64,000 nt of DNA from an uncultured Alphaproteobacteria bacterium (GTDB taxonomy: Bacteria > Pseudomonadota > Alphaproteobacteria > RF32 > CAG-239), in the NCBI GenBank assembly GCA_944393725.1, contig CALYBC010000025.1, positions 1,232 through 65,231 of the forward strand, written 5' to 3'. Made by a program: the position numbers and the translations under genes. Below are positions 24,325-53,989 of this stretch, piece after piece. Within the stretch, counting starts at the first letter, position 1. Every line of letters begins with the position of its first letter. Below the pieces are notes generated by a model that made no database searches, was not told the origin of the DNA, and was given only the letters and a program-made list of their open reading frames with translations.

Positions 24325-24464
24325 AGTCCGCCCCCTCATCCTGAGAAACCCTTCATTGTCCATGATACCACTTTTTCTGCACCAAAACAACATCATCTTT
24401 CTCGAAAACAAACTTTTTATTTATAAATCAATCTCTTATAAATATACCACAAAACCCCAAAGCA

Positions 24465-26541: not shown

Positions 26542-26967
26542 CTATACTTCGTCGTCGTAAGTTTTTTCCATTCTTTCGTGACGTTCTTGAGCTTCGATAG
26601 ACAATGTTGCAACAGGTCTTACCTCAAGCCTGTCAAGACCTATCGGATCACCGGTTTCTTCGCAATAACCGTAAGTTCCATCTTCAATTCTTTTTAAAGC
26701 CTCATCAATTTTAGCAATCAACTTTCTGGCTCTGTCACGTGTTCTCAATTCCAAAGCCTTATCGGATTCTAAAGAGGCTCTGTCAATCTGATCTGGCTGA
26801 TTGAGACCTCCTTGTTTCAAATCATCTAATGTATCCATAGATTGACCAATTAAAGATTTTTTCCAATCCAACAACTTCTGTCTGAAATACTCCAGTTGCA
26901 TTTCATTCATATATTCTTCATTTTCCGAAGGTTTGTAATCCGGCGGCAAAGAAACAGCACTGTCCAT
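26542..26967 (-). CDS. dksA: RNA polymerase-binding factor DksA (one-Cys alphaproteobacterial type)
   Basis: YMNEMQLEYFRQKL, DQIDRAS coiled-coil tip, GTYGYCEETG..RPVATLSIEAQERHE. Confidence 0.95.
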   Translation of the reverse strand: MDSAVSLPPDYKPSENEEYMNEMQLEYFRQKLLDWKKSLIGQSMDTLDDLKQGGLNQPDQIDRASLESDKALELRTRDRARKLIAKIDEALKRIEDGTYGYCEETGDPIGLDRLEVRPVATLSIEAQERHERMEKTYDDEV

Positions 26968-27501: not shown

Positions 27502-28107
27502 CTAATAAAAAACATATTGTATGGTATTGTCATATTCTTTACTACACAACTCCATTGCCACACTGGTAGAAACAGGAAAAGTATATTTTTCATTTGTTGC
27601 ATTTTTTAATTGCCATACCGTTTTGCTGTTATCACTATTTACAACCATTGCATAAACAACCGATCTTTGTCCTTTATCCCAATTAATCTGTACGGCATTA
27701 ACACAAGTTTTTCTGCTTAAACCGGTAAAAACAATTTCATATTTATCATCTTGATCGCTAACATCATCATTATATACTTTTACCGAAACCTCACCACCGC
27801 TCCTGCTTTTTAACTTACCTCGGACACACATCTGAAAAGGTGCAATTTTATTATTGCATAAATAGGATGCAGCACTATTTTCATCACTACCCAATGCGCT
27901 ATAATTACCGTCAAACCTATAAATATCCGAGATAGCTTTTTGCAAATCTCTCACCTCACCTGCCACCATATTTTGCGTAAACACCGCATATATGCTGTTT
28001 ATTAATGAAATCACTGATACACCAAGCATAATAGCAATAGCAATAACGGCAATAGCCTCAATCATTGTTGCACCGGACTGATTTATTTTATTTATGCCCG
28101 ACATCAT
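27502..28107 (-). CDS. Type IV pilin-like protein (PilS/type IVb-like)
   Basis: Prepilin cleavage motif NQSG|ATMIEAIAVIAI; FTGLSRKTC; C-terminal Cys; start 28107 with AGAGGA. Confidence 0.8.
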   Translation of the reverse strand: MMSGINKINQSGATMIEAIAVIAIAIMLGVSVISLINSIYAVFTQNMVAGEVRDLQKAISDIYRFDGNYSALGSDENSAASYLCNNKIAPFQMCVRGKLKSRSGGEVSVKVYNDDVSDQDDKYEIVFTGLSRKTCVNAVQINWDKGQRSVVYAMVVNSDNSKTVWQLKNATNEKYTFPVSTSVAMELCSKEYDNTIQYVFY

Positions 28108-28231
28108 AACTCCTCTGCCACACTCTTTTAATAAAAACAACAAATACATTGTTTTTTATTTTACTTTTTCCAATATATTATATATATAATATTGCCAAAG
28201 GCAAACATATCTTTTTTACCTGGAGATTAAA

Positions 28232-28765
28232 ATGAAGAAATTTTTTACATTTTTTAGTTTATTTACAATCGCTACCCTTTCTCAAGAAGTTTCTGCACTG
28301 GAATACAGACCGTATTTTGGTATTGGTTATGCTGCTGACCATATTAATTACAAAGCAACACCTACCAATATCAACATGAATTCTTACACTGCTTTTATCG
28401 GAAGTGAATACAACAAATATTTCGGCACCGAAGTATTTTATCAACAAAGCACAACCTGGAATAAAGTTATTAAAGGCAACAAGATAAGCAGTGATTTCTA
28501 CGCCTATGGACTTGACACTTATACATATCTCCCTCTTGGTTGTGAGCAAAGAATAGCTCCTTTTGCCACATTAGGTGTTTCTGGATATGAATTTGGCAAA
28601 GATAACAAAGATTGGGGATTGGGATACCGCATGGGCGGCGGTTTACAATATAAGATTACTGACAATATTGCCATCAGAGCTCTAGGCCGTTATATTCTGA
28701 CAGACAAGCTAGATAATATTGATCATATATCAGAATTTTCGATTAATTTAAAATATGTTTTTTAA
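28232..28765 (+). CDS. Small outer-membrane beta-barrel (OmpA/Opa-like)
   Basis: Signal peptide, RPYFGIGY, NKYFGTEVFY, GGGLQYKITDNIAIRA, terminal KYVF. Confidence 0.8.
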   Translation: MKKFFTFFSLFTIATLSQEVSALEYRPYFGIGYAADHINYKATPTNINMNSYTAFIGSEYNKYFGTEVFYQQSTTWNKVIKGNKISSDFYAYGLDTYTYLPLGCEQRIAPFATLGVSGYEFGKDNKDWGLGYRMGGGLQYKITDNIAIRALGRYILTDKLDNIDHISEFSINLKYVF

Positions 28766-28775
28766 GGAATAAAAA

Positions 28776-29243
28776 ATGAAAAAATTTCTTCTCGCCTTTT
28801 TACTGATAACACTGGTTGCTTGCTCAAAAGAAGACACCACCGCCGAAAAGACAGCTCAAGCCAATCAGACATTAGATAAAGAAACGGTTTTTTCTTTTTC
28901 TTCAGACGATTTAACCGCAGGCTGCAATAATTCTTCAGAAATTATATGCACCATAAATTTAGCTGTTAAGTGCACTATTAATCCCAACCTGGATGAGTGT
29001 AGCGAAAACAAAGAAATATTACCGTCATTCATATTTATGCAAGATGAATCTTTACAAAGACCAACATTCCAATCATATCAGATTACAAAATTAAAACCAC
29101 GCGAAGACGGTGCCGTAGAAGTATATACTCAAAGTTCATGTAATGGCAATTGGTTTGGCCTATGTAACGGTAATATAATCTATGTTATGAAAAACTACGA
29201 TTCCAAATGGCAAATAGTTGATATGTACGCCGTAGAATTTTAA
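28776..29243 (+). CDS. Cys-rich hypothetical lipoprotein
   Basis: Lipobox LVAC; six further Cys. Confidence 0.7.
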   Translation: MKKFLLAFLLITLVACSKEDTTAEKTAQANQTLDKETVFSFSSDDLTAGCNNSSEIICTINLAVKCTINPNLDECSENKEILPSFIFMQDESLQRPTFQSYQITKLKPREDGAVEVYTQSSCNGNWFGLCNGNIIYVMKNYDSKWQIVDMYAVEF

Positions 29244-29641
29244 TTTTCAGACAACTTATCAAGCAAAAGATAAAAATCTCTCTTTTCTTGTGTATCATTT
29301 GTTTCCAAAGGTTCAGATTCCACAACAAAAATATCCCCTGTTGTCATTTTAGCAATATCAACAGCTATATTATCATCTAGTATCAACTCACCGTCGTCTG
29401 CAAATTTTTTTAGATTTGCCAGATAAACATCATATTTTTTCTTATAATCAGGTTTATTTATTTCTCTGTCGTATTCAATATACTTTTTACTATCCGGCAA
29501 CTTCTCCACTTTGTGCATTTTATCTGTTTCCGGAATAAAAAAATCAGGTTCTTTTAACTGGCGTACATACCTTGCCTCAGCTGATTGATAAAACAACAAT
29601 AAAAGCAATAACAACAAAATTTTTCGCATTTTTATAACCAT
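29240..29641 (-). CDS. Secreted hypothetical protein
   Basis: Signal peptide MRKILLLLLLLLFYQSAEA (start probably 29629). Confidence 0.65.
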   Translation of the reverse strand: MVIKMRKILLLLLLLLFYQSAEARYVRQLKEPDFFIPETDKMHKVEKLPDSKKYIEYDREINKPDYKKKYDVYLANLKKFADDGELILDDNIAVDIAKMTTGDIFVVESEPLETNDTQEKRDFYLLLDKLSEN

Positions 29642-29674
29642 AAATTAACAATTAACCTATAACAATATTTTATT

Positions 29675-30340
29675 ATGAAAAAGATTTTTTTTATATTAAC
29701 AAATTTATTTTTTTTAAGCCGCACAGTTTTTGCGGCAGATTGCTCATCATTGCAAATAAACCCCGAAATAGAATTAACCTCTTCTTTTGGTAAATTAACC
29801 GGAATATACGATAAAGATAAAGAAGAAATATCTGCATTGGCAGAACAATTAAACAGTATTGAACACGGACTTTTTGCATCTGGTTTATCAACCGTGAATA
29901 TAGATTTTGATATCTCACTTGAAGCCGAAGCGCTTCAAATCGACAAAACAACATATTGCATAATACCGGCAAAAATAAAATTATTTTTAGGTTTAACCAA
30001 CCCGACAATTTATCTTTCGCAAGAACTACAAGCCGAAAGTTGTGCATACAATATTGTTTTATATCATGAACAAGTCCATCACCAAATAAATGTTGCAACA
30101 CTTGAATATTATCTTCCTTTATTTAAAGACGCAGCCGAGAAACTATCAAAAAAAATAACCCCTATAAAGACAGATACTTTAAACAACAATAAAGAAAACA
30201 TTTCGCAAATGACTATAGAATTTAATCAAAATCTTATTCCGCTTGTAAACTACATAAAAAAAGAGATTATCAATCAACAAAAGCGACTGGATAATCCCAA
30301 AAACTACAAATTTGAAAGCAAACTTTGCCAAGACAACTAA
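29675..30340 (+). CDS. Secreted putative Zn-peptidase (DUF922-like)
   Basis: Signal peptide, CAYNIVLYHEQVH (HExxH), QQKRLD..Y near C-terminus. Confidence 0.65.
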   Translation: MKKIFFILTNLFFLSRTVFAADCSSLQINPEIELTSSFGKLTGIYDKDKEEISALAEQLNSIEHGLFASGLSTVNIDFDISLEAEALQIDKTTYCIIPAKIKLFLGLTNPTIYLSQELQAESCAYNIVLYHEQVHHQINVATLEYYLPLFKDAAEKLSKKITPIKTDTLNNNKENISQMTIEFNQNLIPLVNYIKKEIINQQKRLDNPKNYKFESKLCQDN

Positions 30341-31008
30341 GAAGCTTTTCCTTTTAAAACATCTTCCAAAAAGCTTTCTATCCCCTTGTAAGCATAATCA
30401 ATAAAAGTTTTATCTTTTGTAGAATTATTATGATAATAAATTCTAACTGTTGTCATACCGGCTTCTTTGGCAAACTCAAGATTAGAATAGCTGTCATCGA
30501 CGAACACGCAATCTTCTGGTTTCGCATTTATTTTTTTGCAAAATTCTTTATAAACATTTGCATTTTCATTTTTTTTATAAACACCAAAATCCTCCACCGA
30601 ATAATAGCGATTTTTAAAAAATTCATACAAACCGAGGTGCTTAAGAATTTTTTCCGAAGCATAACGATCGCTTGCTGTAAATACATATTGCTCTGCCGGA
30701 ACTTTTTCTATTTTTTCCAGCAAATTATCATAAGGAACAATCTTTTCCACCGGTTTTCTTTTATGATAAGCAATAAACAAGTCTTTTGGTTTTATATTGT
30801 AATTTTGATAAAAAATCTCTCCGCCGTCTCTATATATTTTATATGATTCCGTAACTAATTTTTTAGCTTTTTCAACATCCATATCAAGACCTAAATCATA
30901 AACCAAAGCCTCAGCCATAACGGTATCAAGAATATCGGCAAAATACTCTGTTTTATTATACAAAGTATCATCCAAATCATAAATAACAATATTTTTACCT
31001 AAAACCAC
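30337..31008 (-). CDS. HAD hydrolase, pyrimidine 5'-nucleotidase-like
   Basis: YDLDDTLY, FVDDSYSNLEFAKEAGMTTV. Confidence 0.85.
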   Translation of the reverse strand: MVLGKNIVIYDLDDTLYNKTEYFADILDTVMAEALVYDLGLDMDVEKAKKLVTESYKIYRDGGEIFYQNYNIKPKDLFIAYHKRKPVEKIVPYDNLLEKIEKVPAEQYVFTASDRYASEKILKHLGLYEFFKNRYYSVEDFGVYKKNENANVYKEFCKKINAKPEDCVFVDDSYSNLEFAKEAGMTTVRIYYHNNSTKDKTFIDYAYKGIESFLEDVLKGKAS

Positions 31009-31075
31009 ATCAGTACCCTTCTGTTAACACAAACAGCGGGATTTTAATTAAAAAATAGCTAAAAATCAAGAAGAA

Positions 31076-31765
31076 TCAAAGATTCCAAATTGGATTTTTT
31101 ACATTTTTTTCTAAAAATTGCTGATGCTGTTCTTCAAAATTTTCGTCAATACTAAAAACTCTCGGTTTTCTTAAATTATTACCTTTAACATCTTCTCTGA
31201 TAACATTAATTTTATTTTGTTGTTTTTTAGCATCCAATAACAAACTAGGCTCTTTTCCGCCAAGCAACTCTAGATAAACTTCTGACAAAAGCTGAGCATC
31301 AAGCAAAGCTCCGTGAAAAGTACGAGCACTATTATCAATCTCAAATCTTTTACACAATGCATCAAGACTGCATCTTGCACCCGGAAACATAGCTCTGGCA
31401 ATTTCCAAGGTATCAATACAATTATCCCAAGACATCTGTCTTTTATTAATTTGCTTTAGCTCATAATTAACAAAATTCATATCAAAAGAAGCATTGTGCG
31501 CCACCAACTTATCATCACCGATAAACTCCAACCATTTATCGGCCACTTTGTCAAAAGTTGGATAATCTTTTAAAATTTCATAAGTAAGACCATGCACCTT
31601 AACGGCATCTTCCGGAACTTCTCTTTCCGGATTTATATATTGGTGAAAAGTTTTACCGGTTGGTAGATGGTTAATAAGTTCAACCGCACCTATTTCTATA
31701 AGTCTATGCCCTTTTGCATATTCAAAGCCTGTAGTCTCAGTATCAAAAACAATTTCCCTAACCAT
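31076..31765 (-). CDS. dnaQ: DNA polymerase III epsilon subunit
   Basis: EIVFDTETTG, VAHNASFD, HGALLDAQLL. Confidence 0.96.
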   Translation of the reverse strand: MVREIVFDTETTGFEYAKGHRLIEIGAVELINHLPTGKTFHQYINPEREVPEDAVKVHGLTYEILKDYPTFDKVADKWLEFIGDDKLVAHNASFDMNFVNYELKQINKRQMSWDNCIDTLEIARAMFPGARCSLDALCKRFEIDNSARTFHGALLDAQLLSEVYLELLGGKEPSLLLDAKKQQNKINVIREDVKGNNLRKPRVFSIDENFEEQHQQFLEKNVKNPIWNL

Positions 31766-32349
31766 TAATTTTCTTCCAACGAATTTATAACATTGATTAA
31801 TTGCACCCTAAGAATATTAAAAGGCTTATTCGTGTTAATTACAATATCAGACAAATATTTTTTATAGCTATTGTTCATTTGTACATTATTTATTTTTTCA
31901 AAATCTTCTGCCGAAATATTATCTCTTTTCATAACGCGTTGTTTTTGGGTATTATAATCAACATCTGCCAATATTATTACATCGCAATATTTATCCCAAT
32001 TTTTTTCAAAAAGCAACGCAATATCCAAAAACGCCACATAATTATCTTTAGCTTTTTTATTTATAATTTTTTTTATTTTTGCATTAAGAATAGGGTATAT
32101 AATATCTTCTAACTTTTTTAATTTTTCTTTATCGGAAAATACTATATTTCTGAGATATTTCTTATCCGCAACACCGTTTTTAACACTTTTTGGAAACAAA
32201 TTTTCAAGCTTTATTAAAAAATCCTTATTATTATATATTTTTCTTACCCAAGCATCAACATCATACACGGCATACCCCAAACCTCTGACAATATTAGCCA
32301 AGGTAGTTTTTCCGCATCCTATTGAACCGGTAATAGCAACAAGCTTCAT
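31765..32349 (-). CDS. coaE: Dephospho-CoA kinase
   Basis: AITGSIGCGKTT, DIALLFE, RVMKRD; coupled to dnaQ. Confidence 0.92.
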   Translation of the reverse strand: MKLVAITGSIGCGKTTLANIVRGLGYAVYDVDAWVRKIYNNKDFLIKLENLFPKSVKNGVADKKYLRNIVFSDKEKLKKLEDIIYPILNAKIKKIINKKAKDNYVAFLDIALLFEKNWDKYCDVIILADVDYNTQKQRVMKRDNISAEDFEKINNVQMNNSYKKYLSDIVINTNKPFNILRVQLINVINSLEEN

Positions 32350-32547
32350 TTTTTACCACCAATCAATAAGTTAAGTAATTTTTGCACAATTAGCGGTTTT
32401 TCTGTGTATAAATCAAGCAAACCACGCTAAGCAGTTTAACTTATTCTCATAATATTAAATTTAATTTTACCACTTATAAACAAGAGATTTATTTATAAAA
32501 ACCATGTTGATATTTTTAATTATCAACAGCAGTTAAAAAAACAATTA

Positions 32548-32593
32548 TTAACGAAATATTAACGATGATTCAAAATATTAAAAAAAGGTTAAC
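32548..32593 (+). promoter_or_regulatory. Two tandem perfect CtrA boxes (TTAA-N7-TTAAC)
   Basis: TTAAcgaaataTTAAC 32548-32563 and TTAAaaaaaggTTAAC 32578-32593, with GATTC between them. Confidence 0.7.
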
Positions 32594-32743
32594 ATTTGGA
32601 TTCTATCAAATTATCAACAATTAAAAAATCTGTGTATATTTCTGTAAACAAAAATTTAATCCACAAGACTCACAATGATATACAAATAACAACAATATTT
32701 TTTAAATATATTGATAGGGAAGGCAGGGTGTTGATAAAATAAA

Positions 32744-32773
32744 TTGACAAACAAACAAAAAACAATATATAAA
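32744..32773 (+). promoter_or_regulatory. sigma70-type promoter of rho
   Basis: TTGACA 32744-32749, TATAAA 32768-32773. Confidence 0.6.
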
Positions 32774-32829
32774 AGCAGAGTAATCAGATATTCACTTTTC
32801 TTACTAAATTTCCCAAAACAAAGGTAAAC

Positions 32830-34083
32830 ATGAATTTAAAAGATTTAAAACAGAAATCTCCTGCTGAGCTATTAGCTCAAGCCGAAGAACTAGGCATTGA
32901 TGATGCTTCTTCAATGCGTAAACAAGACTTAATGTTTGGTATATTAAAAAAAATAGTTGGTGAAGATGAAGCTATAACCGGTGAAGGAACCATTGAGGTA
33001 ATGCCTGACGGTTTTGGATTTTTAAGATCATCTGAATCAAATTATTTAGCCGGACCTGATGATATATATGTATCCCCTTCTCAAGTAAAAAGATTTGGTT
33101 TAAGAACCGGAGATACGGTTGAAGGTGAAATCAGAGCTCCCAAAGAAAATGAAAAATATTTTGCCTTGGTAAAAGTAGATAGAATAAACTTTGATGATCC
33201 GGAAAAATCAAAATTAAGGGTTAATTTTGATAACTTGACTCCATTATATCCGACAGAAAAATTAAATTTTGACATTATATGCGGTGACAAAGATTATACT
33301 ACCAGAGTAATAGATTTAATCGCACCGCAAGGCAAAGGTCAAAGAGGTCTGATTGTAGCACCTCCGAGAACTGGTAAGACCGTAATGTTGCAAAATATAG
33401 CACATGCAATCGCAACCAATCATCCTGAATGTTACTTAATGGTATTATTGATAGATGAACGCCCCGAAGAAGTTACCGATATGACGCGTTCGGTTAAAGG
33501 CGAGGTTATATCATCAACCTTTGATGAACCTGCTTCAAGACATGTTCAAGTAGCCGAGATGGTTATAGAAAAAGCTAAAAGATTGGTCGAAAACAAAAAA
33601 GATGTTGTTATTTTACTGGATTCCATTACTCGTTTAGGCCGTGCTTATAATACGGTAATTCCATCATCTGGTAAAGTTTTAACCGGTGGTGTTGATGCCA
33701 ATGCTTTACAAAGACCAAAAAGACTTTTAGGTGCAGCCAGAAATGTAGAAGAAGGCGGATCTCTGACTATTATAGCCACTGCTTTGATTGATACCGGATC
33801 AAGAATGGATGAAGTAATTTTCGAAGAATTTAAAGGTACCGGTAACTCAGAAATAATTTTGGATAGAAAATTAACCGATAAGAGATTATTCCCGACCATT
33901 GATATAACTCGTTCCGGAACTCGTAAAGAGGAACTTTTGGTTGATAGAGATACATTAACCAAGATGTGGGTACTGCGTCGTGTATTAATGCAAATGGGCA
34001 TGACAGATGGTATGGAATTCTTGCTTGATAAATTAAGAGTAAGCAAAGATAACAAAGATTTCTTTGCTAATATGAATTCTTAA
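32830..34083 (+). CDS. rho: Transcription termination factor Rho
   Basis: [46 protein letters not shown]. Confidence 0.98.
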
Positions 34084-34088
34084 AAATA

Positions 34089-34126
34089 AAAAATAAGTTT
34101 CTTTCTTGCGAAAGAAACTTATTTTT
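34089..34126. terminator. Bidirectional terminator after rho
   Basis: AAAAATAAGTTTCTTTC-ttgc-GAAAGAAACTTATTTTT. Confidence 0.85.
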
Positions 34127-34590
34127 TAGTAACATACAAAGTAGAAAAAATAGAACAATAAAAGAAAAACAACAGGTGAGATAATCCTATTCTTATAAAA
34201 TTTCTTATATTCTCCTACAACTTCCCCTTCATCGGTTATTGTTCCGTCCCAGTCAGTCACCGATTCAAAATCATTAAACCCTAAAAAACTACCTATCCTT
34301 GGGGCATACATAAAAATTTCAATAACCAAGAATGTGGTTATAAATGATAAAAAAATGTTTATACCGCAAAGATATAAATACAAATCGGCAGACAACAAAG
34401 ACCACATTAGTCTGATATTTACAGGTTTTAATTTTATTAAAGTGTACCTTTGACCAATAAAAATGGTTGCAAATACAATAGCACTGAATATTTTTACATC
34501 CAGTCTCTCTATAAAAAACAAACCTGCTAACCAAGCGGCAACAAAAATCACTATTAAAGTGATTAACAAAATAAAATTTTTCTTTTTCAT
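34126..34590 (-). CDS. Hypothetical membrane protein
   Basis: Several hydrophobic helices, very AT-rich ORF. Confidence 0.6.
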   Translation of the reverse strand: MKKKNFILLITLIVIFVAAWLAGLFFIERLDVKIFSAIVFATIFIGQRYTLIKLKPVNIRLMWSLLSADLYLYLCGINIFLSFITTFLVIEIFMYAPRIGSFLGFNDFESVTDWDGTITDEGEVVGEYKKFYKNRIISPVVFLLLFYFFYFVCY

Positions 34591-34674
34591 AAGTAAAAAA
34601 TTTAAAATTAGACAATTAATAATATTTAATTATAAGTGTATTATTAGAAAAATTTTTATTTTTTTCAAGAAATT

Positions 34675-35331
34675 TTATATTTTTGATAAAATAAAGTTTT
34701 TAACATCAATCATATTATCAAAAATATTTTGAATATTAAGTTTTCTGATTTCATTTATGTATTGCGGCGTACTATATTTTACAAAAGCAACAACATTCAT
34801 TTTAGCCTTTTGAGCGGCAATAATTCCGGGGATTGAATCTTCGACAACTACACAATCTGATGAATTAAAACCAAGAGTATCGGCAGCCAACAAAAAGATA
34901 TCAGGTTCAGGTTTTCCGTACTTAACCAAATCAACCGTAAAAACCTTTTCCGGCGGAAAATATTTTTCAATACCGACTTGTTTAATTTTCAATTCGGTTT
35001 TAGCAAAAGTGCCTCCGGTGGCAATGCATTGTTCAAAATCGTTTATTTTAAAAATTTCTTCAATACCGTCGGTTAAAGCAACACCTTGTTTTAATTTTTG
35101 CATATCAAGCCTAAGAGCTTCATTCCAAAAATCATCAGATATGTTAATTCCCATTTTTAGCAATACGGCTTTTTTATCTTTATCGCTAAGACCGCCGATA
35201 TTTTTATTTGCGGTTTCAAAATTCCAATTGAGGTTAAAATATTTATTGAGCAGGTCCATTCTTGATAAGACCCATAACTTTTCTGTATCGGCAATTACAC
35301 CGTCAAAATCCCAAATTATTAATTTTTTCAT
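34675..35331 (-). CDS. HAD-IA family phosphatase
   Basis: WDFDGVIADTE, GKPEPDIFL, VVEDSIPGI. Confidence 0.9.
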   Translation of the reverse strand: MKKLIIWDFDGVIADTEKLWVLSRMDLLNKYFNLNWNFETANKNIGGLSDKDKKAVLLKMGINISDDFWNEALRLDMQKLKQGVALTDGIEEIFKINDFEQCIATGGTFAKTELKIKQVGIEKYFPPEKVFTVDLVKYGKPEPDIFLLAADTLGFNSSDCVVVEDSIPGIIAAQKAKMNVVAFVKYSTPQYINEIRKLNIQNIFDNMIDVKNFILSKI

Positions 35332-35521
35332 TTTTACCCCAAAAAAATCGATTAATTCTAAAGGCCGTACGGAGGTTTTTCGATTAGTCTACGATACTTT
35401 TATTAAAAAAACATAAATCATCTCTCAGAAGTCAAAAAAACGGCTTTTTTTTGGAGTCGTTTTTAAAACTTGCTTTAATAAAACAATCTCGTTATAAAAA
35501 AGCAATAAAAGGAGAGAAAAA

Positions 35522-36865
35522 GTGACAAACCAAACTATTTATGCCTTATCGACGGTTTACGGAAAATCTGGTGTTGCCGTAATCAGAATTTCCGGAGCCG
35601 AAGCACTAAAAGCAGTTGAACTGATGACCGATATTGATATAAAAAACATCAAACCGCGTTATGCTTATTTTTCAAAATTGCATAATTTGGATAGAACCGA
35701 AAATTTGGATGAGAGTTTGGTTTTGTATTTTAAGGCTCCTAATTCTTTTACCGGAGAAGACATTGTTGAATTTCAAACTCATGGTTCCAAGGCTGTAATA
35801 AGTTCGGTTATGAATTGTTTGTCGCAAATTGAAGGTTTTCGTATGGCCGAACCGGGAGAATATTCCAAACGCGCTTTTTATAATGGTAAAATGGATTTAA
35901 CCGAAGCAGAGGGTTTGGCTGATTTAATAGATTCCGAAACTTCAGAACAACAAAAATATGCTATGCGGCAGATGGAAGGCGGATTAAAGAATTTATACGA
36001 AAATTGGCGTTCCGAACTGGTAAAGATATTATCTCATTTGGAGGCATATATAGATTTTCCCGATGAAGACATTCCTTCTTCGGTAATAGATAATATGAAT
36101 AACACTGTATTTAAACTAGAAAATAGCATAAAAGAACATTTGAACAGTGATTCTATAGGAGAAAGATTACGCGAAGGTTTCAGAGTGGTAATTGTCGGAG
36201 CCCCCAATGCCGGCAAATCAAGTTTATTAAATGCCATAGTAAAAAGAGACGCGGTTATAGTTTCTGATATTGCCGGTACTACGCGCGATGCCATAGATGT
36301 CCATTTAGATTTGAACGGTTATCCGGTAATGTTTACCGATACGGCAGGTTTAAGAGAAACCGAAGAGGAAATAGAAAAGAAAGGTATAGACATAGCTTAT
36401 GGCAAAATCCATGATGCAGACTTAGTAATATGTTTATTTGATGCTTCATCAGACACGGTTCAAGTGTTTGATAAAATAAGAGATTCGTTAAAAGGTAAGG
36501 CTATTTTTGTTGCTAATAAGAGTGATAAAATATCTTCGGAACAATGTTCAGAATTGGAAAAAGCGGGCTATTTGGTAATCTCTGCCAAACAAAAACAAGG
36601 AGTTGATAAGGTTTTACAGTCGATAACGCAAAATATCAAAGATCGTTTTACTTCAAACTCCAATCTTTTGATTACCAGAAACCGCTATCGCGAAGCCTTA
36701 AAAGATGTTTTGGAAAATCTGCAGAACTTCGGTTTTGACAAAGAGATTGAGTTGACGGCGGAAGATGTCCGTCTTGCCGCTCGAGCCTTAGGAAAAATCA
36801 CCGGTAGGATAGAAGTTGACGAGATTTTAGATAAAATATTCGGTGATTTTTGTATTGGAAAATAA
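35522..36865 (+). CDS. mnmE: tRNA modification GTPase MnmE
   Basis: GVAVIRISG, SFTGED, GAPNAGKSS, GTTRD, DTAG, terminal FCIGK. Confidence 0.97.
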   Translation: MTNQTIYALSTVYGKSGVAVIRISGAEALKAVELMTDIDIKNIKPRYAYFSKLHNLDRTENLDESLVLYFKAPNSFTGEDIVEFQTHGSKAVISSVMNCLSQIEGFRMAEPGEYSKRAFYNGKMDLTEAEGLADLIDSETSEQQKYAMRQMEGGLKNLYENWRSELVKILSHLEAYIDFPDEDIPSSVIDNMNNTVFKLENSIKEHLNSDSIGERLREGFRVVIVGAPNAGKSSLLNAIVKRDAVIVSDIAGTTRDAIDVHLDLNGYPVMFTDTAGLRETEEEIEKKGIDIAYGKIHDADLVICLFDASSDTVQVFDKIRDSLKGKAIFVANKSDKISSEQCSELEKAGYLVISAKQKQGVDKVLQSITQNIKDRFTSNSNLLITRNRYREALKDVLENLQNFGFDKEIELTAEDVRLAARALGKITGRIEVDEILDKIFGDFCIGK

Positions 36866-39498: not shown

Positions 39499-40326
39499 AT
39501 GCAAAAGTTTAGCTACCACAGTCATACCAACTTTGCCGGAATATTTGACGGCCGCAACACTGCCGACGAAATGATTTCCGCGGCCGAAACTTTTGGTTTT
39601 GAAGAATTTGGTATCAGCAATCACTTTATTTACCACCCTACCATTGCTAAAATTCCGTTTATTCATACGCAAATGTTTGGGGATATAAATAAACTAATTG
39701 ATGTATACAAGCAAAATTATGAGGATATCGACAAGGCTGCCGAGCAGCATAATATAAAAGTTCTCAAAGGAATGGAGGTTGACTTCTTTCCGTCAGCAAA
39801 GTGGCGCAATAGTTTTGAAAAGGCGATAAAAGAACTCAAGCCGGATTATATAATCGGAGCCACGCATTTTATCAGAAATTCCGATGAAAGTTTCATGTGT
39901 AACATATATCACTTAAACAATCTTCCGGAAAGTATTACTGCGGAAGAAAAAGAAGATTTGTTGCGAAACTATTGGCTAAACACCGAATCAAGCGTAAAAA
40001 GCGGGTATTTTGATTTTATTGCTCATTTTGACTACTGCTGCCAATTTGATTTATGCGTAACGGACGATTGGAATGAATATAAATACAAAGTAGTAGAAGC
40101 CTTATCTGCAACCGGCACTGCCTGTGAAGTAAACACAAATGGCTTAAGGCGTATCGGTCGCCCCTACCCTGATTGGTGGCTGGTCAAAGAAATGATAAAG
40201 CAAGATATTCCTTTGTTGATTAGCGATGATTCTCATTTTGCGAATCATGTTGGTTCGTATTTTGCCGAAGTTGAGAAAAAATTATCCGAATTAGGTTGTG
40301 AGAATCGTTTTTCTTTTCATAAATAG
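39499..40326 (+). CDS. PHP-domain phosphoesterase (histidinol-phosphatase HisJ/HisK-like)
   Basis: SYHSHT, GISNH, GMEVDF, GATHF, IAHFD, EVNT, SDDSH. Confidence 0.85.
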   Translation: MQKFSYHSHTNFAGIFDGRNTADEMISAAETFGFEEFGISNHFIYHPTIAKIPFIHTQMFGDINKLIDVYKQNYEDIDKAAEQHNIKVLKGMEVDFFPSAKWRNSFEKAIKELKPDYIIGATHFIRNSDESFMCNIYHLNNLPESITAEEKEDLLRNYWLNTESSVKSGYFDFIAHFDYCCQFDLCVTDDWNEYKYKVVEALSATGTACEVNTNGLRRIGRPYPDWWLVKEMIKQDIPLLISDDSHFANHVGSYFAEVEKKLSELGCENRFSFHK

Positions 40327-40445
40327 ATTCAAATATCACTGTTTAAGTAATTGAAAATGTAGCTGTTTTTGTTTTTATTAAAAATGGTGTTTATAAGTCG
40401 GTTTTTTATGTTTTAAATTTTTCATAATTTTTATAAAAATAAGTT

Positions 40446-48741: not shown

Positions 48742-51249
48742 TCAGAAGTTATATGTCAAATCGAAAGATGCCGACCATTCGTTATACTCATCACCGAAGG
48801 TATAGTCAGCATTGGCGCCGATAGCCCAATGATCTGTTAGCTGATAATTCGCCCCTACCTCCATATTTCCTAATGTGCGGTCTTTTGTACCCTCTAAGGT
48901 TAAGCCGTCGCTAAAACGCACATCTTGCTCGGAATTAAAGGTCTGTATGATTGATGGTTTAACATAAATCTGAGCTAATGCACCATCACCATAGGTAACA
49001 TTTTTAGCAAATTTTACACCCAATTCAATCTCGGCATAGTTCACATCATCATAATCAACTGACTTACCGGCATTATCGCCAAATCCGTCAAGATTCAGCA
49101 TTTCATATGTAACTCTCAAGTTAGGCTCAATAGATATACCTTTAATCTCATTAAAGATATAAGAAACATCTACACTGGCACCCAAAATACTACCGTCGGT
49201 ATCGGCAGTAACGCCATCATCCGAAGAAAAGTCGGCTTTTAAAACCTCACCATATATAGCAGCCACTGTCGATAAGTGATTTTTATCCATTCTGTAGAAA
49301 ACACCGGCTAAATAGCTATCAATTGAGGTTTCGGCAGAGCCGTTAAAATTATATTTATCGGAGTTTCCGCTAAAATCATAAGAACCGTTTCTTACTGAAG
49401 CGATAATACCCACCTTATGAGTTCCGTCAGAGATTAAATCTAATCCTGCATCAACACCGGTAATTTCCGCATCATAATTTAGAGGATAATCAATATTAGC
49501 TTTGGCAAATACAGGAGAAACAAAAGCCGACAGCTGAGCTGTTTCCGGTTTGCAAAAAGCAGTATTTGAAAGAGGGGTTTCTTGTAGACATTTTCTTACT
49601 TTGAGGCGGTTTGGAGCAATATTTTTTCTCAAATCGGCAACCAAAGAACGATTTTGCATTAAAGCATTTTCCAACAAACCGGCATAAGCGGCTACCTCGC
49701 TCATAATATTAGTTGAATAAGCATACCATTTATTATCTCTGTTTACCGTATCCCATGCATAAGAACTTCCGTCTACACGCCAAATATTGAAATCAGCCGC
49801 CGTACTCGTATCATCGTTTTGTGCATCAACAAACAAAATCTCGCCATTGCTCATGCTGTCGGATGAAGCAAATAGATGGACATTTGTATTTCCTTGAACA
49901 TCACCATTTATGGTTAAAATATCAGCCGATCCGGCATTAGGGTTCACTTTCAACTTAAGCATACCATTATTTGAAGTGTAATTACCGTCAATGGTAAGGT
50001 TATTGTTTGCATCTGCTGACGCGATATTCAACAAGCCGCCGTTAATAAGGTTTCCTGTTATGGTAAGGTTTTGATTTGCAGTAGAAAGAGTTACATTTTC
50101 ACCAAGATTTATATTGCTGTCTGCATTAAGAGCAAGATTGCCATATAAAGAGATTGTTGTTGGATATAGCTCCGGATTTTCCGCAAGCAATGCAAGGTTG
50201 TCAAATCCTGTTATCTCCGTAGCTCCCGTTCCGATTTCAAAATTGCCGTTTTTGAGAGTTATGGAAGTATCACTAGCCGTAGTTGCAAAACTATTTCCCA
50301 AAGCGGAATTTACACCACCATCCAAAGTAATATCACCGCCAACATTTTGTGCAAAATTTTGATAATCAAACCCGCCGGTTAGTTGTGCTTGGTTTGATAA
50401 GACGGTATTTCCTTGCAAAACCACACCGGCTTCAAGATCAATAATAGCACCGTTAAGAGCGTTAAAATTATTAAAAACGGCGCCGGTTTTACCACTCAGA
50501 GTTCCGCCGTTTTCAACGGAAACATTTTTTGCAGTACCAAAAATTTCAGCGGTAGCAGTTTGAGAGATTGATGCGTTTTCAAGGTTAGAAGAATTATGCA
50601 TTGTGAGAGATCCGCCGGTCATACTAAGATTTGTTAATAAGGAATTATTAGCAGCTGAAATCAACCCATCAGAAATTTCAAGATTGTTGATGGTTCCTCC
50701 GGTTTCTAAATAAGTCTCACCATTGGATATCGTTAATCCGTTAACCGTTCCGCCGTTTTGGACATTAATCCAACCGGAATTTTGCACCACCTCATCGGCT
50801 ACACCACTCACAAAAAGATTGCCGTTTTCATTTACGGTCACACCTTTTGCATTTCCGAATGCTTGCACGGTAATTTTTCCGGTATTTGTAATTTCGGAGC
50901 CGCTTACGATTAAGTTACTTGCGTTTCCGGAGGCTTGAATTTCGACATATCCACCACCGTTTACAACCGTTCCGTCAGAAAATCCGTTGTTTGCCACATA
51001 AAAATTACCACCTTGGTTCACAGTAGTATTGGTTACATGTCCGTTATTGAAAACCGAAAAGTTGCCGCCCGAATTAACAATTGTCCCATCAGCGGTGGCT
51101 TCTTGTTCTATTCCAAGTTGCGGATATCCGGCATGTAGTTCATAGTTATCATATGTTCCGGAAGCGTAGTTTTCTGCCAAAACATTCGCTGAATGCAAGC
51201 TCAAAAAGGTTGTGGTTAATAAGAATAACGAACTTTTTTTAGACAACAT
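48742..51249 (-). CDS. AIDA-like autotransporter, paralogue of 19837-24324
   Basis: Signal peptide, TTVNQGG/GTVVNGGG repeats, autochaperone-like ADILTINGDVQG, barrel ending LTYNF. Confidence 0.9.
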   Translation of the reverse strand: MLSKKSSLFLLTTTFLSLHSANVLAENYASGTYDNYELHAGYPQLGIEQEATADGTIVNSGGNFSVFNNGHVTNTTVNQGGNFYVANNGFSDGTVVNGGGYVEIQASGNASNLIVSGSEITNTGKITVQAFGNAKGVTVNENGNLFVSGVADEVVQNSGWINVQNGGTVNGLTISNGETYLETGGTINNLEISDGLISAANNSLLTNLSMTGGSLTMHNSSNLENASISQTATAEIFGTAKNVSVENGGTLSGKTGAVFNNFNALNGAIIDLEAGVVLQGNTVLSNQAQLTGGFDYQNFAQNVGGDITLDGGVNSALGNSFATTASDTSITLKNGNFEIGTGATEITGFDNLALLAENPELYPTTISLYGNLALNADSNINLGENVTLSTANQNLTITGNLINGGLLNIASADANNNLTIDGNYTSNNGMLKLKVNPNAGSADILTINGDVQGNTNVHLFASSDSMSNGEILFVDAQNDDTSTAADFNIWRVDGSSYAWDTVNRDNKWYAYSTNIMSEVAAYAGLLENALMQNRSLVADLRKNIAPNRLKVRKCLQETPLSNTAFCKPETAQLSAFVSPVFAKANIDYPLNYDAEITGVDAGLDLISDGTHKVGIIASVRNGSYDFSGNSDKYNFNGSAETSIDSYLAGVFYRMDKNHLSTVAAIYGEVLKADFSSDDGVTADTDGSILGASVDVSYIFNEIKGISIEPNLRVTYEMLNLDGFGDNAGKSVDYDDVNYAEIELGVKFAKNVTYGDGALAQIYVKPSIIQTFNSEQDVRFSDGLTLEGTKDRTLGNMEVGANYQLTDHWAIGANADYTFGDEYNEWSASFDLTYNF

Positions 51250-51254
51250 TAGAA

Positions 51255-51355
51255 GAATCCTCCGAATCGCTTATAAGTCGATTCTAGGAAAAAAATATTA
51301 ACAAAATATTTATGATTCATCTTTATGATTCGCGGAGTCCGCAAAAAGTCGATTC
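51255..51355. promoter_or_regulatory. Cluster of seven GANTC sites plus a near-CtrA box upstream of autotransporter 2
   Basis: GANTC at 51255, 51264, 51280, 51314, 51327, 51335, 51351; TTAA-caaaata-TTTA 51298-51312. Confidence 0.7.
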
Positions 51356-51377
51356 TTTTTAAGCTTTTAGCGTTTAA

Positions 51378-51971
51378 TTACAAGACTTTTCTGGAATTAA
51401 GAGCCAGCTGAAGAGTACCCTCGTCCATATAATCAAGCTCAGCGCCCATAGGAATACCTTGTGCCAGAGTAGTAATTTTAAGATTGTAATCCTTAAATTT
51501 AGAAAACAGGTAGTGAGATGTAATTTGTCCGTCTATGGTGGCAGGCAAAGCCAAAAGCAACTCTTTTACCTCTCCCAAGGCCACTCTTTTTTCCAAGTTG
51601 TCTATATTTAAGTCTTCTGGTACAATGCCTTCCATGGCCGATAAAACGCCGCCCAAGACATGATATTTTCCCTTAAAGAGTGAAACCCTTTCCATAGCCC
51701 ACAAATCGGCAACATCGCGTACTACGCAAATAATCGAATTATCGCGGTTTGGCGACGAACAAATCGGGCAGGGGCTTACGGTATCAAAATTTCCGCAGAT
51801 TTCGCAGGTTTTAATATTCTGTGCCACATTGTTTAATGCGGCAATCAAAGGTTCAAAAGCGGTCTCTCGTTTATTTAAGAGGTGCAAAACAATTCTTCGT
51901 GCCGAACGCGAGCCGAGAGAAGGTAGCTTAGCAATTTGCTTTATCAGAACTTCAATATCTTTTCCTGCCAT
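51378..51971 (-). CDS. recR: Recombination protein RecR
   Basis: LPSLGSRSARR, CEICGN..CPIC, YHVLGGVLS, GIPMGAELDY. Confidence 0.96.
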   Translation of the reverse strand: MAGKDIEVLIKQIAKLPSLGSRSARRIVLHLLNKRETAFEPLIAALNNVAQNIKTCEICGNFDTVSPCPICSSPNRDNSIICVVRDVADLWAMERVSLFKGKYHVLGGVLSAMEGIVPEDLNIDNLEKRVALGEVKELLLALPATIDGQITSHYLFSKFKDYNLKITTLAQGIPMGAELDYMDEGTLQLALNSRKVL

Positions 51972-51980
51972 ATTAACCCC

Positions 51981-52301
51981 TTAGAACGGTAACTTCATAC
52001 CACCTAAATTTAGCCCTCCGGTCAAAGCCGAAACGCTTTCGTTCATTTTTGCATCAACCTTGTTTTTAGCATCATTATAAGCGGCTAAAATCAAATCTTC
52101 TAAAATATCATTTTCGTCAGGATTAAGCAAAGATTTATCAATATTGAGCCTGATCATATCAAATTTGCCGTTAAGAGTTATTTTTACCAAGCCGCCGCCG
52201 GAAATTCCTTCAACTTCTTCTTCAGCCAATTTAGCTTGTTCTTCCTGCATTTTTTTCTGCATCATTTGAGCTTGTTTCATCAAATTTTGAATATTCATCA
52301 T
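51981..52301 (-). CDS. ybaB: YbaB/EbfC nucleoid-associated protein
   Basis: MKQAQMMQ, SGGGLV, LEDLILAAYNDA. Confidence 0.95.
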   Translation of the reverse strand: MMNIQNLMKQAQMMQKKMQEEQAKLAEEEVEGISGGGLVKITLNGKFDMIRLNIDKSLLNPDENDILEDLILAAYNDAKNKVDAKMNESVSALTGGLNLGGMKLPF

Positions 52302-52303
52302 GA

Positions 52304-53989
52304 TTAATTATCCTCATCAAAATAAGTGTTTTCTTCATAGAAGAAGGATGGTTCTTCTTCAGTATCTTCCTGACTTGCTATTTTTCTGGTCAATGTATCG
52401 ATTTTAGCTCCTCGGAATTCGGCCATTATGGCTTTAACCAGGGGTAAATCCATCACATCTCTTTTCAATTCGCGGTCTTTTGCCGCTTCTTTGTCGGCCA
52501 GCGTTTCTCCCAAAGGGCCTTTTTGTATATTTATCTTCCACTTAATACCTGTTGCTTCGGTTAGGGTGTTTTGCAAATTGAGCAAGAAATCATTATTGAT
52601 TTTCTCGCTGGTATTAACCGACATTTCACCGTTAGCAAATTGGTTAAAAGAGAAATCATTTTTGATGGAGTAAGCCATCATAATTTTTTTGTTTTCTACC
52701 AAAAAATCAACCATTTCCTCCGGTGATGAAAAAACGACCATTGCCTCGCCGTCATTGTCAACGTTCTTAGTCGCAAAAGAAACATTTTCGGTTTGTTTTA
52801 GGGCACTGTTGTCTAAGAAATTAGAGTTTTTTTTTAAGCCATCCAGAATCTCAGCCGGAGAGGGAAGATTAGCCGAAAAGGCAATTCTGATTAATATCAT
52901 TTCCAGTGCATCGGCTTGTACCGGAGCAATATTAACCTCACTCAAGCCTTTAATCAGCATTTGCCAAATTTTAGAAAGAATGGCAATAGGAATATTTGGA
53001 GCCAAACGGTTGCAAAAATCTTTTTCGTTTTCTGACAACGCCGGACTTTTAAGTACTTCAGGCACAATTTTAACCTTAGCCAGCATATGAGTAAGATTAA
53101 TTAAATCTTGCAGCAAGGTCAGAGGATTAGCTCCGTTTTGATGTTGATTGGCAAGGTTTTCCATAACCTTTTCCATATTTCCGCCGACCAAGGCTTCAAA
53201 CAATTCAAAAGTCAAAGTTCTGTCAGCCAAGCCAATCATATTTTTTACAATATCGGTTCTAACTTCCCCGGCACCGAGCGAAATTGCTTGATCAAGCATT
53301 GACAATCCGTCGCGGCAAGAACCGTCGGCCGCTTTCGCAATCAGGTGCAAAGCCTCATCATCGGCTTTAAGGTTTTCTTTTTGAATAATGTTTTTGAAGT
53401 GATTAACCAATGTCTCTATAGAAAGTCTTTGCAAATCAAATCTTTGGCAACGCGATAAAATGGTAACCGGAACTTTTCTGATTTCGGTAGTGGCAAAGAT
53501 AAAAACAACATGAGAAGGAGGTTCTTCCAAGGTTTTAAGCAAGGCGTTGAACGCCTGTTTAGAAAGCATATGAATTTCATCGATGATATATACTTTATAG
53601 CGAGCATTTGTAGGCTTATATCTTACCCCGTCCAAAATTTCTCTGATATCGTCAACGCCGGTTCTGGAAGCCGCATCAAGTTCCAACACATCAATATGAC
53701 GAGATTCTGCAATGGCACGGCAGTTTTCACATATTCCGCAAGGGTTTACGGTAGCGCCGCCGGAAGCATCTTTTCCGGTGCAATTAAGTGCTTTAGCAAT
53801 AATTCTGGCGGTGGTTGTTTTTCCGACACCTCTTATTCCTGTAAGAATATATGCGTGGTGCAGTCGATTATTTTTTATGGCGTTGGTAATAGTTTTAACC
53901 AATGCATCTTGTCCCAACAGCTCATTAAAATTCTGCGGACGGTACTTGCGTGCTAAAACTACATAATTTTCTTGTTTATCTTCAGCCAT
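52304..53989 (-). CDS. dnaX: DNA polymerase III tau/gamma subunit
   Basis: LARKYRP, GIRGVGKTT, IIDEIHML, SRCQRF. Confidence 0.97.
   Translation of the reverse strand: MAEDKQENYVVLARKYRPQNFNELLGQDALVKTITNAIKNNRLHHAYILTGIRGVGKTTTARIIAKALNCTGKDASGGATVNPCGICENCRAIAESRHIDVLELDAASRTGVDDIREILDGVRYKPTNARYKVYIIDEIHMLSKQAFNALLKTLEEPPSHVVFIFATTEIRKVPVTILSRCQRFDLQRLSIETLVNHFKNIIQKENLKADDEALHLIAKAADGSCRDGLSMLDQAISLGAGEVRTDIVKNMIGLADRTLTFELFEALVGGNMEKVMENLANQHQNGANPLTLLQDLINLTHMLAKVKIVPEVLKSPALSENEKDFCNRLAPNIPIAILSKIWQMLIKGLSEVNIAPVQADALEMILIRIAFSANLPSPAEILDGLKKNSNFLDNSALKQTENVSFATKNVDNDGEAMVVFSSPEEMVDFLVENKKIMMAYSIKNDFSFNQFANGEMSVNTSEKINNDFLLNLQNTLTEATGIKWKINIQKGPLGETLADKEAAKDRELKRDVMDLPLVKAIMAEFRGAKIDTLTRKIASQEDTEEEPSFFYEENTYFDEDN
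52821..52837 (-). other. A9 slippery site in dnaX with immediate -1-frame stop
   Basis: Minus strand TTA AAA AAA AAC TCT AA; shifted frame reads AAA CTC TAA. Confidence 0.65.

Follow-up and report, generated by a model that had tools for sequence, protein, structure and literature searches.

The 128-bp intergenic region at positions 51250-51377 of a 64,000-nt stretch of DNA from an uncultured alphaproteobacterium (the whole stretch is hereafter the window) carries seven GANTC sites, the target of the cell-cycle methyltransferase CcrM, immediately upstream of a gene for an 835-aa autotransporter. The cluster is real and conserved and very probably regulatory, and expression of the autotransporter adhesin is probably tied to DNA methylation. 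The reading we favour, to which we give a probability of about 0.55, is that of a methylation- and cell-cycle-coupled promoter, which would be activated by CtrA at a poor −35 and whose output would be set by the CcrM methylation state via GcrA. Control of promoters by CcrM, GcrA and CtrA is already established. What is new is the phased array of 7-10 sites, its packaging as a reusable cassette and its attachment to adhesin families in uncultured gut alphaproteobacteria. We found no description in the literature of a GANTC-array cassette before autotransporters; supplementary tables may list further multi-GANTC promoters.

The seven sites are all found at the positions given by the initial annotation of this DNA (Table 1), and the near-palindrome (51264-51284), both direct repeats and the TTAA-N7-TTTA element (51298-51312) that it had described are present in the sequence. 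The observation of a GANTC cluster before an autotransporter gene is confirmed as real. No further site lies within 49092-52846. GANTC is depleted in the window (125 observed compared to 185.9 +/- 12.8 in shuffles) and about twofold genome-wide (2538 observed compared to 5153 expected from base composition), a depletion which Gonzalez et al. describe for CcrM-bearing Alphaproteobacteria (PMC3973325). When 101-bp intervals were anchored on all 2538 genome sites, 6 or 7 GANTC were reached by this cluster only, and the second-best interval, with 5, lies before a paralogous autotransporter gene. By anchored intervals and by intergenic counts, 51250-51377 exceeds every other GANTC cluster of the 1.435-Mb genome in density; it ranks first among 1054 intergenic regions obtained by crude open reading frame (ORF) calling, ahead of one with 6 sites over 452 bp. 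Given the intergenic rate, at least seven GANTC in 128 bp have a Poisson probability of 1.3e-8, and in 200,000 mononucleotide shuffles the region never reached seven. Exact sites stand to one-mismatch near-sites as 7:2 in the region and as 2538:58254 (1:23) genome-wide, so the enrichment concerns GANTC itself and not similar words. At least five GANTC in the interval −300 to +60 were found for two of the 1283 called genes, both of them encoding autotransporters, namely the 835-aa protein (7 sites) and a 1241-aa paralogue (6 sites) at G000:C25:75086-78808, where G000 is the window's own genome and C25 its contig carrying the locus. For the remaining two classical autotransporter genes of the genome the counts are 2 and 0. 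Dense clusters are uncommon in this genome, and autotransporter promoters are the outliers, a point that the initial annotation had proposed to check.

Conservation in relatives was among the checks that the initial annotation had proposed. A search of the 55 other genomes of the genus gave a full-length orthologue of the 835-aa autotransporter (75% identical) in G068 only, where the gap keeps all seven sites and has gained an eighth through one T-to-C substitution. Identity between the two loci is 95% over the 100 bp upstream of the ATG, the highest value among 55 intervals across the 5.5-kb locus, compared to 73% for the autotransporter gene, 89% for recR and 56% for the 27 nt that follow the recR stop. 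A diverged contig from sequencing run X6, shallow and therefore of weak support, has five listed base changes in 51246-51275, by which no site is lost and the same eighth site is gained; the short, shallow run contigs that lie over the gap showed no indel or joint. Downstream of recR in the 29 relatives examined no cluster was found, with a maximum of four sites in 600 bp, and this includes G019, whose RecR is 98% identical. These clusters are missing because the autotransporter is absent at that position, which therefore says nothing against conservation. The cluster is kept in the only orthologous locus, and similar arrays occur before autotransporter genes across the genus.

For the most part these arrays are copies of a single homologous module, which we call the cassette. 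Its order is two or three GCGATTC copies, GACTC-AAAAC-GAATC, GCGAATCG, GGGAATCGGTAA, an A/T stretch, TTGTTAA, 12 nt and a TAnnnT hexamer. In an alignment of 13 copies (A2) the invariant columns cluster at three features, namely the GANTC boxes, the TAA-N7-TTAA element and the first two bases (TA) of the −10 hexamer, and conservation of the box flanks extends beyond the pentamer (AAAACGAATC, GCGAATCG, GGGAATCGGTAA). Relative to an inferred start near 51274, i.e. 7 nt after TAGAAT, to which all promoter positions refer, the cassette boxes lie at about −87, −64 and −42. Since they are 22-23 bp apart (23 and 22 bp, about two helical turns), they would face one side of the helix. The CtrA-like TAA-N7-TTAA lies over the −35 position. 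A −10-like TAGAAT, with a GANTC overlapping it, is present in 3 of the 13 aligned copies and at our locus, and copies that bear it have one or two GcrA-consensus GANTC downstream at about +9 to +19. Some copies have gained extra GANTC in some lineages, up to a total of 10.

A sequence-only covariance model of 110 positions built from A2 (R1) was run with E up to 0.01 across the 56 genus genomes and detects the cassette in 44 of them. On our locus it matches G000:C25:52508-52594 (window 51277-51363) over model positions 13-107 of 110 (E 7.2e-5), in the right orientation and directly upstream of the gene, and on the orthologous locus of G068 it matches with E 6.6e-4. Our copy is a shortened, divergent cassette. 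The distance from Box2 to Box3 is 21 bp here and 22 bp in the cassette, that from Box3 to the site overlapping the −10 is 34 bp in both, and that from the −10 site to the leader site is 16 bp here and 18 bp in the cassette. A scan of six cassette loci against Rfam gave no match at E up to 0.1. Counting a triple-site pattern in five genomes (22, 23, 17, 53 and 23, with 10, 25, 8, 7 and 78 for a reversed-pattern control) gave no consistent excess, this measure being too loose. Another conserved element, roughly 45 bp long and holding three or four GACTC/GAGTC sites, occurs in several genus genomes, twice in G056 (G056:C6:25045-25093 and 26859-26907; G057:C4:61885-61927; G004:C1:396847-396889).

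To describe what the cassette precedes, the 54 R1 matches with E < 1e-7 were classified by homologue coordinates and direct locus inspection. Autotransporter genes lie downstream of 25 copies (one a pseudogene, two assigned via Pmp repeats and four by coordinates only) and large signal-peptide ORFs, with no Pfam match in their sequenced part, downstream of two. Sixteen copies precede a conserved non-coding stretch of about 250 nt ('type B'), with gyrB divergent and polA convergent. Four copies follow recF and face a convergent gene instead of an autotransporter, single copies have dnaN downstream, rpsA downstream or a convergent gene only, and four at contig ends were not evaluable. A downstream gene or conserved element is present for 46 of the classified strong copies, always on the strand of the cassette. 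The cassette is a portable promoter, enriched at autotransporter genes yet not exclusive to them (about half of the strong copies). As a conserved module it carries 6-10 sites whose layout is fixed and helically phased, and in this uncultured gut genus with small genomes it is linked chiefly to genes for surface adhesins. In G003 it is found directly upstream of dnaN and rpsA, both Pfam-confirmed (L113, G003:C24:57500-60000; L115, G003:C24:25000-27500), so the module is not restricted to surface proteins. The copies divergent from gyrB and those before dnaN and rpsA argue for a self-standing promoter and a global regulator, not an autotransporter-specific one.

Autotransporter homologues were found in 31 of the 56 genomes, most with 5-10 GANTC within about 200 bp upstream. 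Where at least 250 bp of upstream sequence was available, as required for evaluation, 19 of 34 autotransporter 5' regions of the genus hold at least five GANTC; among loci with shorter upstream sequence, L037, L041 and L044 show 6-7 and L036 shows 3. The autotransporter promoters of L055 and L079 hold 5-6 GANTC, with no cassette alignment by eye and no R1 match reported. These arrays outside the cassette, together with the extra sites gained in cassette copies, suggest that GANTC site density itself is under selection.

The gap at our locus is the entire intergenic region between the recR stop (51378) and the autotransporter ATG (51249) on the minus strand, where the gene order is dnaX, ybaB, recR, the 128-bp gap and the 835-aa autotransporter ORF. 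Its predicted anatomy is given in Table 1. The YGAKTCK form of the GANTC site is matched by four of the seven sites, one of them at about +9 of the inferred start and none near −20. The word TAGAATC is found at the identical 34-bp distance from Box3 in the paralogue, L044, L083 and the type-B loci. The near-CtrA box is a stronger element than was first claimed, TAA-N7-TTAA being invariant in 13 of 13 aligned cassette copies. The predicted RNA fold of the gap is no better than that of shuffles (z −1.14; 26 of 200 shuffles fold equally well).

Table 1. Features of the recR-autotransporter intergenic region and its flanking genes (window coordinates; promoter positions approximate)
Feature	Position	Strand	Remarks
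Whole intergenic region	51250..51377	-	Inferred promoter and short 5' leader; divergent copy of the genus-wide GANTC-box cassette
GANTC, centre about −79	51351..51355		7-mer CGATTCT matches YGAKTCK
GANTC (GAGTC/GACTC), about −63	51335..51339		Geometry as cassette Box2 (−64); no YGAKTCK match
GANTC, about −55	51327..51331		7-mer TGATTCG, the top GcrA consensus
GANTC, about −42	51314..51318		Counterpart of cassette Box3; followed by conserved A/T stretch and TTGTTAA
CtrA-like box TAAA-N7-TTAA, on gene strand	51298..51312	-	5' base at about −38 from inferred start
Inferred −10 hexamer TAGAAT	51281..51286	-	Overlapped by GANTC 51280-51284
GANTC over inferred −10, about −8	51280..51284		7-mer CGATTCT matches YGAKTCK
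GANTC, about +9	51264..51268		CGAATCG/CGATTCG matches YGAKTCK; predicted within Caulobacter GcrA window +2..+30
GANTC, about +18	51255..51259		Overlaps ribosome-binding site by 2 nt; no YGAKTCK match
Shine-Dalgarno GGAGGA	51258..51263	-	8 nt before ATG
recR	51378..51971	-	Final gene in upstream dnaX-ybaB-recR run
Autotransporter, classical (type Va), 835 aa	48742..51249	-	AIDA/Ag43-like passenger repeats and C-terminal beta-barrel

The initial annotation had named four regulators, CcrM, GcrA, CtrA and MucR, as proteins to be sought in the genome, and of these the first three are encoded and MucR was not found. CcrM is present as a full-length orthologue of 368 aa (L001:1402-2505), residues 15-365 of which align with Caulobacter CcrM 6PBD (E 2.6e-154), the C-terminal domain included; it scores 597 bits with the NCBIfam CcrM model, under the Caulobacter-tuned cut-off of 830 bits. 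GcrA (G000:C18, 200 aa) scores 127.6 bits with PF07750, above the cut-off, and 117 bits with the NCBIfam GcrA model, under the cut-off of 280 bits. CtrA (G000:C5:13741-14460) scores 403 bits with NF045991, compared to an equivalog cut-off of 350 bits. For MucR/Ros (PF05443) there was no match in our 97.26%-complete genome, while the control matched Caulobacter. Two further beta-class N6/N4 DNA methyltransferases are encoded (L002:1459-2241, G000:C11; L003:1420-2343, G000:C25, 71.6 kb). One of these extra enzymes is CcrM-like, with 260 aa and without the CcrM C-terminal domain, and no obvious restriction partner was seen for them among the ORFs listed.

We suggest that CcrM would methylate the sites of the cluster once per cell cycle, and that the methylation state (full, or hemimethylated after passage of the fork) would be read at the promoter by GcrA bound to σ70. 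GcrA, here at atypical positions, or a further factor may read the upstream phased boxes, CtrA would provide activation at the poor −35, and production of the adhesin would be confined to a set phase of the cell cycle or growth state. Haakonsen et al. (PMC4647560) describe GcrA in Caulobacter as associating with σ70, preferring TGATTCG/YGAKTCK and acting near −20 and +2..+30, and Zhou et al. (PMC4287350) describe GANTC-bearing promoters as cell-cycle timed and place a full CtrA motif at −39 upstream of Caulobacter ctrA P2. With the inferred start our locus would fit these rules, in that the site at about +9, CGATTCG, would be within the GcrA window and the CtrA-like box would start at about −38, compared to −39.

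Among known systems, the region is like the CcrM/GcrA σ70 promoters of Caulobacter (PmipZ, PftsZ, PcckA and ctrA P1) in that sites for an orphan cell-cycle methylase are located in the promoter, in YGAKTCK forms and with one predicted in +2..+30, and CcrM and GcrA are both encoded. A handful of cell-cycle promoters, with one or two GANTC each, are known to be timed by CcrM methylation. Unlike these, our region has seven sites, and relatives have up to 10; most are at −42 to −87 in a phased array, with one over the −10; and the predicted target is a surface adhesin instead of a division or polarity gene. The region is also like CtrA-activated promoters (TTAA-N7-TTAA) in having a box-like element at the same inferred position, invariant across copies, in an organism that encodes CtrA, and unlike them in that the first half-site of this predicted box is degenerate (TAAA or GTAA), its position being relative to an inferred start. 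The combination recalls the ccrM promoter (PccrM), which pairs a CtrA box with GANTC sites. For Caulobacter starts of CcrM/GcrA-type promoters, the account in PMC4287350 gives 11 of 96 with more than one GANTC. If methylation controls the cassette, the colonisation factors of these bacteria would be coupled to replication of the chromosome or to an epigenetic switch, and the cassette would offer a compact natural test-bed for a question left open by the Caulobacter work, namely whether arrays of many GANTC are read by GcrA alone, by GcrA and CtrA together, or by another factor.

Several observations weigh against the cell-cycle promoter that we favour. Four YGAKTCK matches among seven sites are not clearly above the 28% genome rate, one GANTC overlaps the −10, where Haakonsen et al. 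(PMC4647560) report almost no sites in Caulobacter, and most cassette boxes, at −42 to −87, are outside the window in which GcrA acts in that organism. A consensus scan of the gene strand over 51000-51700 returned no σ70-like promoter and no terminator; read-through from recR is possible. The CtrA-like box has a degenerate first half, with GTAA in most copies and TAAA at our locus, which has TAAA-N7-TTAA instead of the full TTAA-N7-TTAA, and A/T-rich words come cheaply at 40% G+C. The upstream spacings at the locus (16, 8 and 13 bp) are unphased, and its match to the cassette is weak (nhmmer E 0.069). Across the genus, 12 of the 56 genomes, several of them 99-100% complete, have no cassette match, and the 19 positive autotransporter loci are not independent since many are orthologous to one another.

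The same sites may instead form an epigenetic phase switch, in which a protein on the phased GANTC boxes would block CcrM and a heritable state, unmethylated and bound or methylated and free, would leave the adhesin ON in part of the population. We consider this possible, and unlikely. In E. coli, agn43 (Dam/OxyR) and pap (Dam/Lrp) phase-vary by means of clustered Dam sites, and our region is like them in that several methylase targets crowd the promoter and leader of a gene whose product is an autotransporter of adhesin type with weak similarity to Ag43/AIDA-type passengers. Boxes 22-23 bp apart suggest cooperative binding along one face of the DNA, and a site number that drifts up to 10 in some lineages would be expected if density matters. 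However, the enzyme is a beta-class, cell-cycle-restricted CcrM acting on GANTC, its brief presence in each Caulobacter cycle makes for a competition regime unlike that of the constitutive Dam, and there are 7-10 sites here compared to 2-3. The cassette also stands before dnaN, rpsA and a conserved non-coding element, which are odd targets for ON/OFF switching. MucR is to our knowledge the only known GANTC occluder, and the 97%-complete genome gave no match to it; nor did any other candidate binder or competing regulator come to light, though no search was aimed at OxyR, Lrp or Fur. Precedents for protein-shielded, hypomethylated GANTC are described for Caulobacter P169, where four sites are occluded by MucR (PMC5172544), and for Brucella abortus, where a MucR-protected site adjoins the autotransporter gene BAB2_1107 (bioRxiv 10.1101/2024.03.01.583015). 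Our region is like such MucR-occluded promoters in that an envelope or adhesin gene has several GANTC in its promoter, with the Brucella case as precedent for an autotransporter neighbour, and unlike them in that the genome has no MucR/Ros homologue that we could find.

The initial annotation had offered control through CcrM either as a switch of the agn43/pap type or as cell-cycle gating. This interpretation is supported in part. Control through CcrM gains from the machinery, the rarity of the cluster and its conservation; for the switch in particular no methylation-blocking factor can be named, MucR being not found and OxyR and Lrp not searched. We lean to gating by the cell cycle or methylation state because of the CtrA-like box at about −38, the GcrA-consensus site at about +9 and the presence of the cassette before dnaN, rpsA and the non-coding element. 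It is rather improbable that CcrM would be the writer of a heritable ON/OFF switch for autotransporter adhesin families, with a non-MucR protein shielding the cassette, which would be the first phase variation of the Dam/agn43 style in Alphaproteobacteria and would come as a portable promoter module.

A second alternative is an operator array for a dedicated transcription factor that recognises a GAATC-containing word (approximately GCGAATCG), methylation being irrelevant or incidental. The conservation of box flanks past the pentamer would be consistent with such an array, as would a central base that is almost always A/T, the ordered orientation of the boxes, with GATTC copies upstream and GAATC copies downstream, and the small, regulon-like set of genes marked by the cassette. 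Against this, the ratio of exact to one-mismatch sites reported above singles out GANTC, GACTC/GAGTC sites are also present, newly gained sites have different flanks, and the L055 and L079 promoters hold their 5-6 GANTC outside the cassette. Moreover, with CcrM encoded, the sites will be methylated unless shielded, and any binder must therefore cope with N6-methyladenine. We regard an array of this kind as improbable. That the cluster has no function, being a chance event, a recR terminator or RNA structure, or a selfish repeat resembling a miniature inverted-repeat transposable element, is highly improbable, for although its internal direct repeats inflate the GANTC count and the cassette is multi-copy in some genomes (six copies each in G002 and G003), two copies lying at contig ends, the cluster statistics, the conservation in G068 above that of the flanking genes, an RNA fold no better than shuffles, the lack of a terminator-like site on the gene strand over 51000-51700 and the strand agreement of the 46 classified strong copies all speak against it.

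The type-B stretch was seen in 16 genus genomes (L089-L101, L103-L105 and L118; e.g. L090:1772-2011, minus strand), in each of which the cassette is followed by about 250 nt of non-coding sequence and a converging polA. In L089-L101 and L103-L105 the upstream gene is mostly a divergent gyrB, with another gene in L089, L098, L100 and L105. The stretch starts with TAGAATC and a CGATTCTGCAGATCG hairpin and holds a hairpin with a CAAGAAYTG loop; alifold predicts three small hairpins with compensatory changes, and three type-B loci scanned against Rfam had no match. The stretch may represent a novel small RNA driven by the cassette. An nhmmer match to type B in our own genome (C25:100720-100785) was discarded as the polA 3' end that had been included in the model, the element itself not being found there.

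The second-densest cluster of our genome, outside the window at G000:C25:78749-78904, has 6 sites, matches the cassette strongly (E 3.4e-22) and sits between recF, of a dnaA-dnaN-recF run, and the gene for the 1241-aa autotransporter. Both dense clusters of the genome thus follow genes of DNA replication or repair, recR and recF. The cassette is often found beside recF, gyrB, dnaN and recR, and a role as replication origin was considered and rejected because no conserved DnaA box was seen by eye and 12 of the 56 genomes lack the cassette; the GC skew along contig C25 mostly tracks gene orientation. Elsewhere in the genome, six GANTC in 452 bp (G000:C5:9741-10192) lie upstream of an ORF read by eye as NrdD, the anaerobic ribonucleotide reductase, and four lie upstream of dnaA (gene read by eye; G000:C25:82828-83332, outside the window), which echoes the methylation-sensitive dnaA promoter of Caulobacter. 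Four further GANTC occur in about 100 bp (window 40228-40330) within a coding region on the plus strand (G000:C25:40706-41557).

The beta-barrel of the 835-aa autotransporter matches Pfam PF03797 over residues 591-815 (E 1.1e-24) and NCBIfam TIGR01414 (E 2.9e-27), and its passenger has an AIDA repeat (PF16168, residues 51-100, E 1.8e-7). The match to the Ag43/Cah model is weak (41 bits compared to a 1200-bit cut-off), and the N-terminus, MLSKKSSLFLLTTTFLSLHSANVLA, read by eye, resembles a signal peptide. The genome has 39.9% G+C, and contigs from sequencing runs that match the stretch (11 rows from four studies) are labelled chicken gut, gut or plain metagenome, with no RNA run among those listed. 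A second autotransporter gene in the window (19837-24411, minus strand, 1525 aa) is preceded by two GANTC, some 130-160 bp before the codon at which it probably starts (codon 30), and the sequence beside it, at 28000-36000, is low in G+C (31-32%) and marked by an abrupt shift in GC skew.

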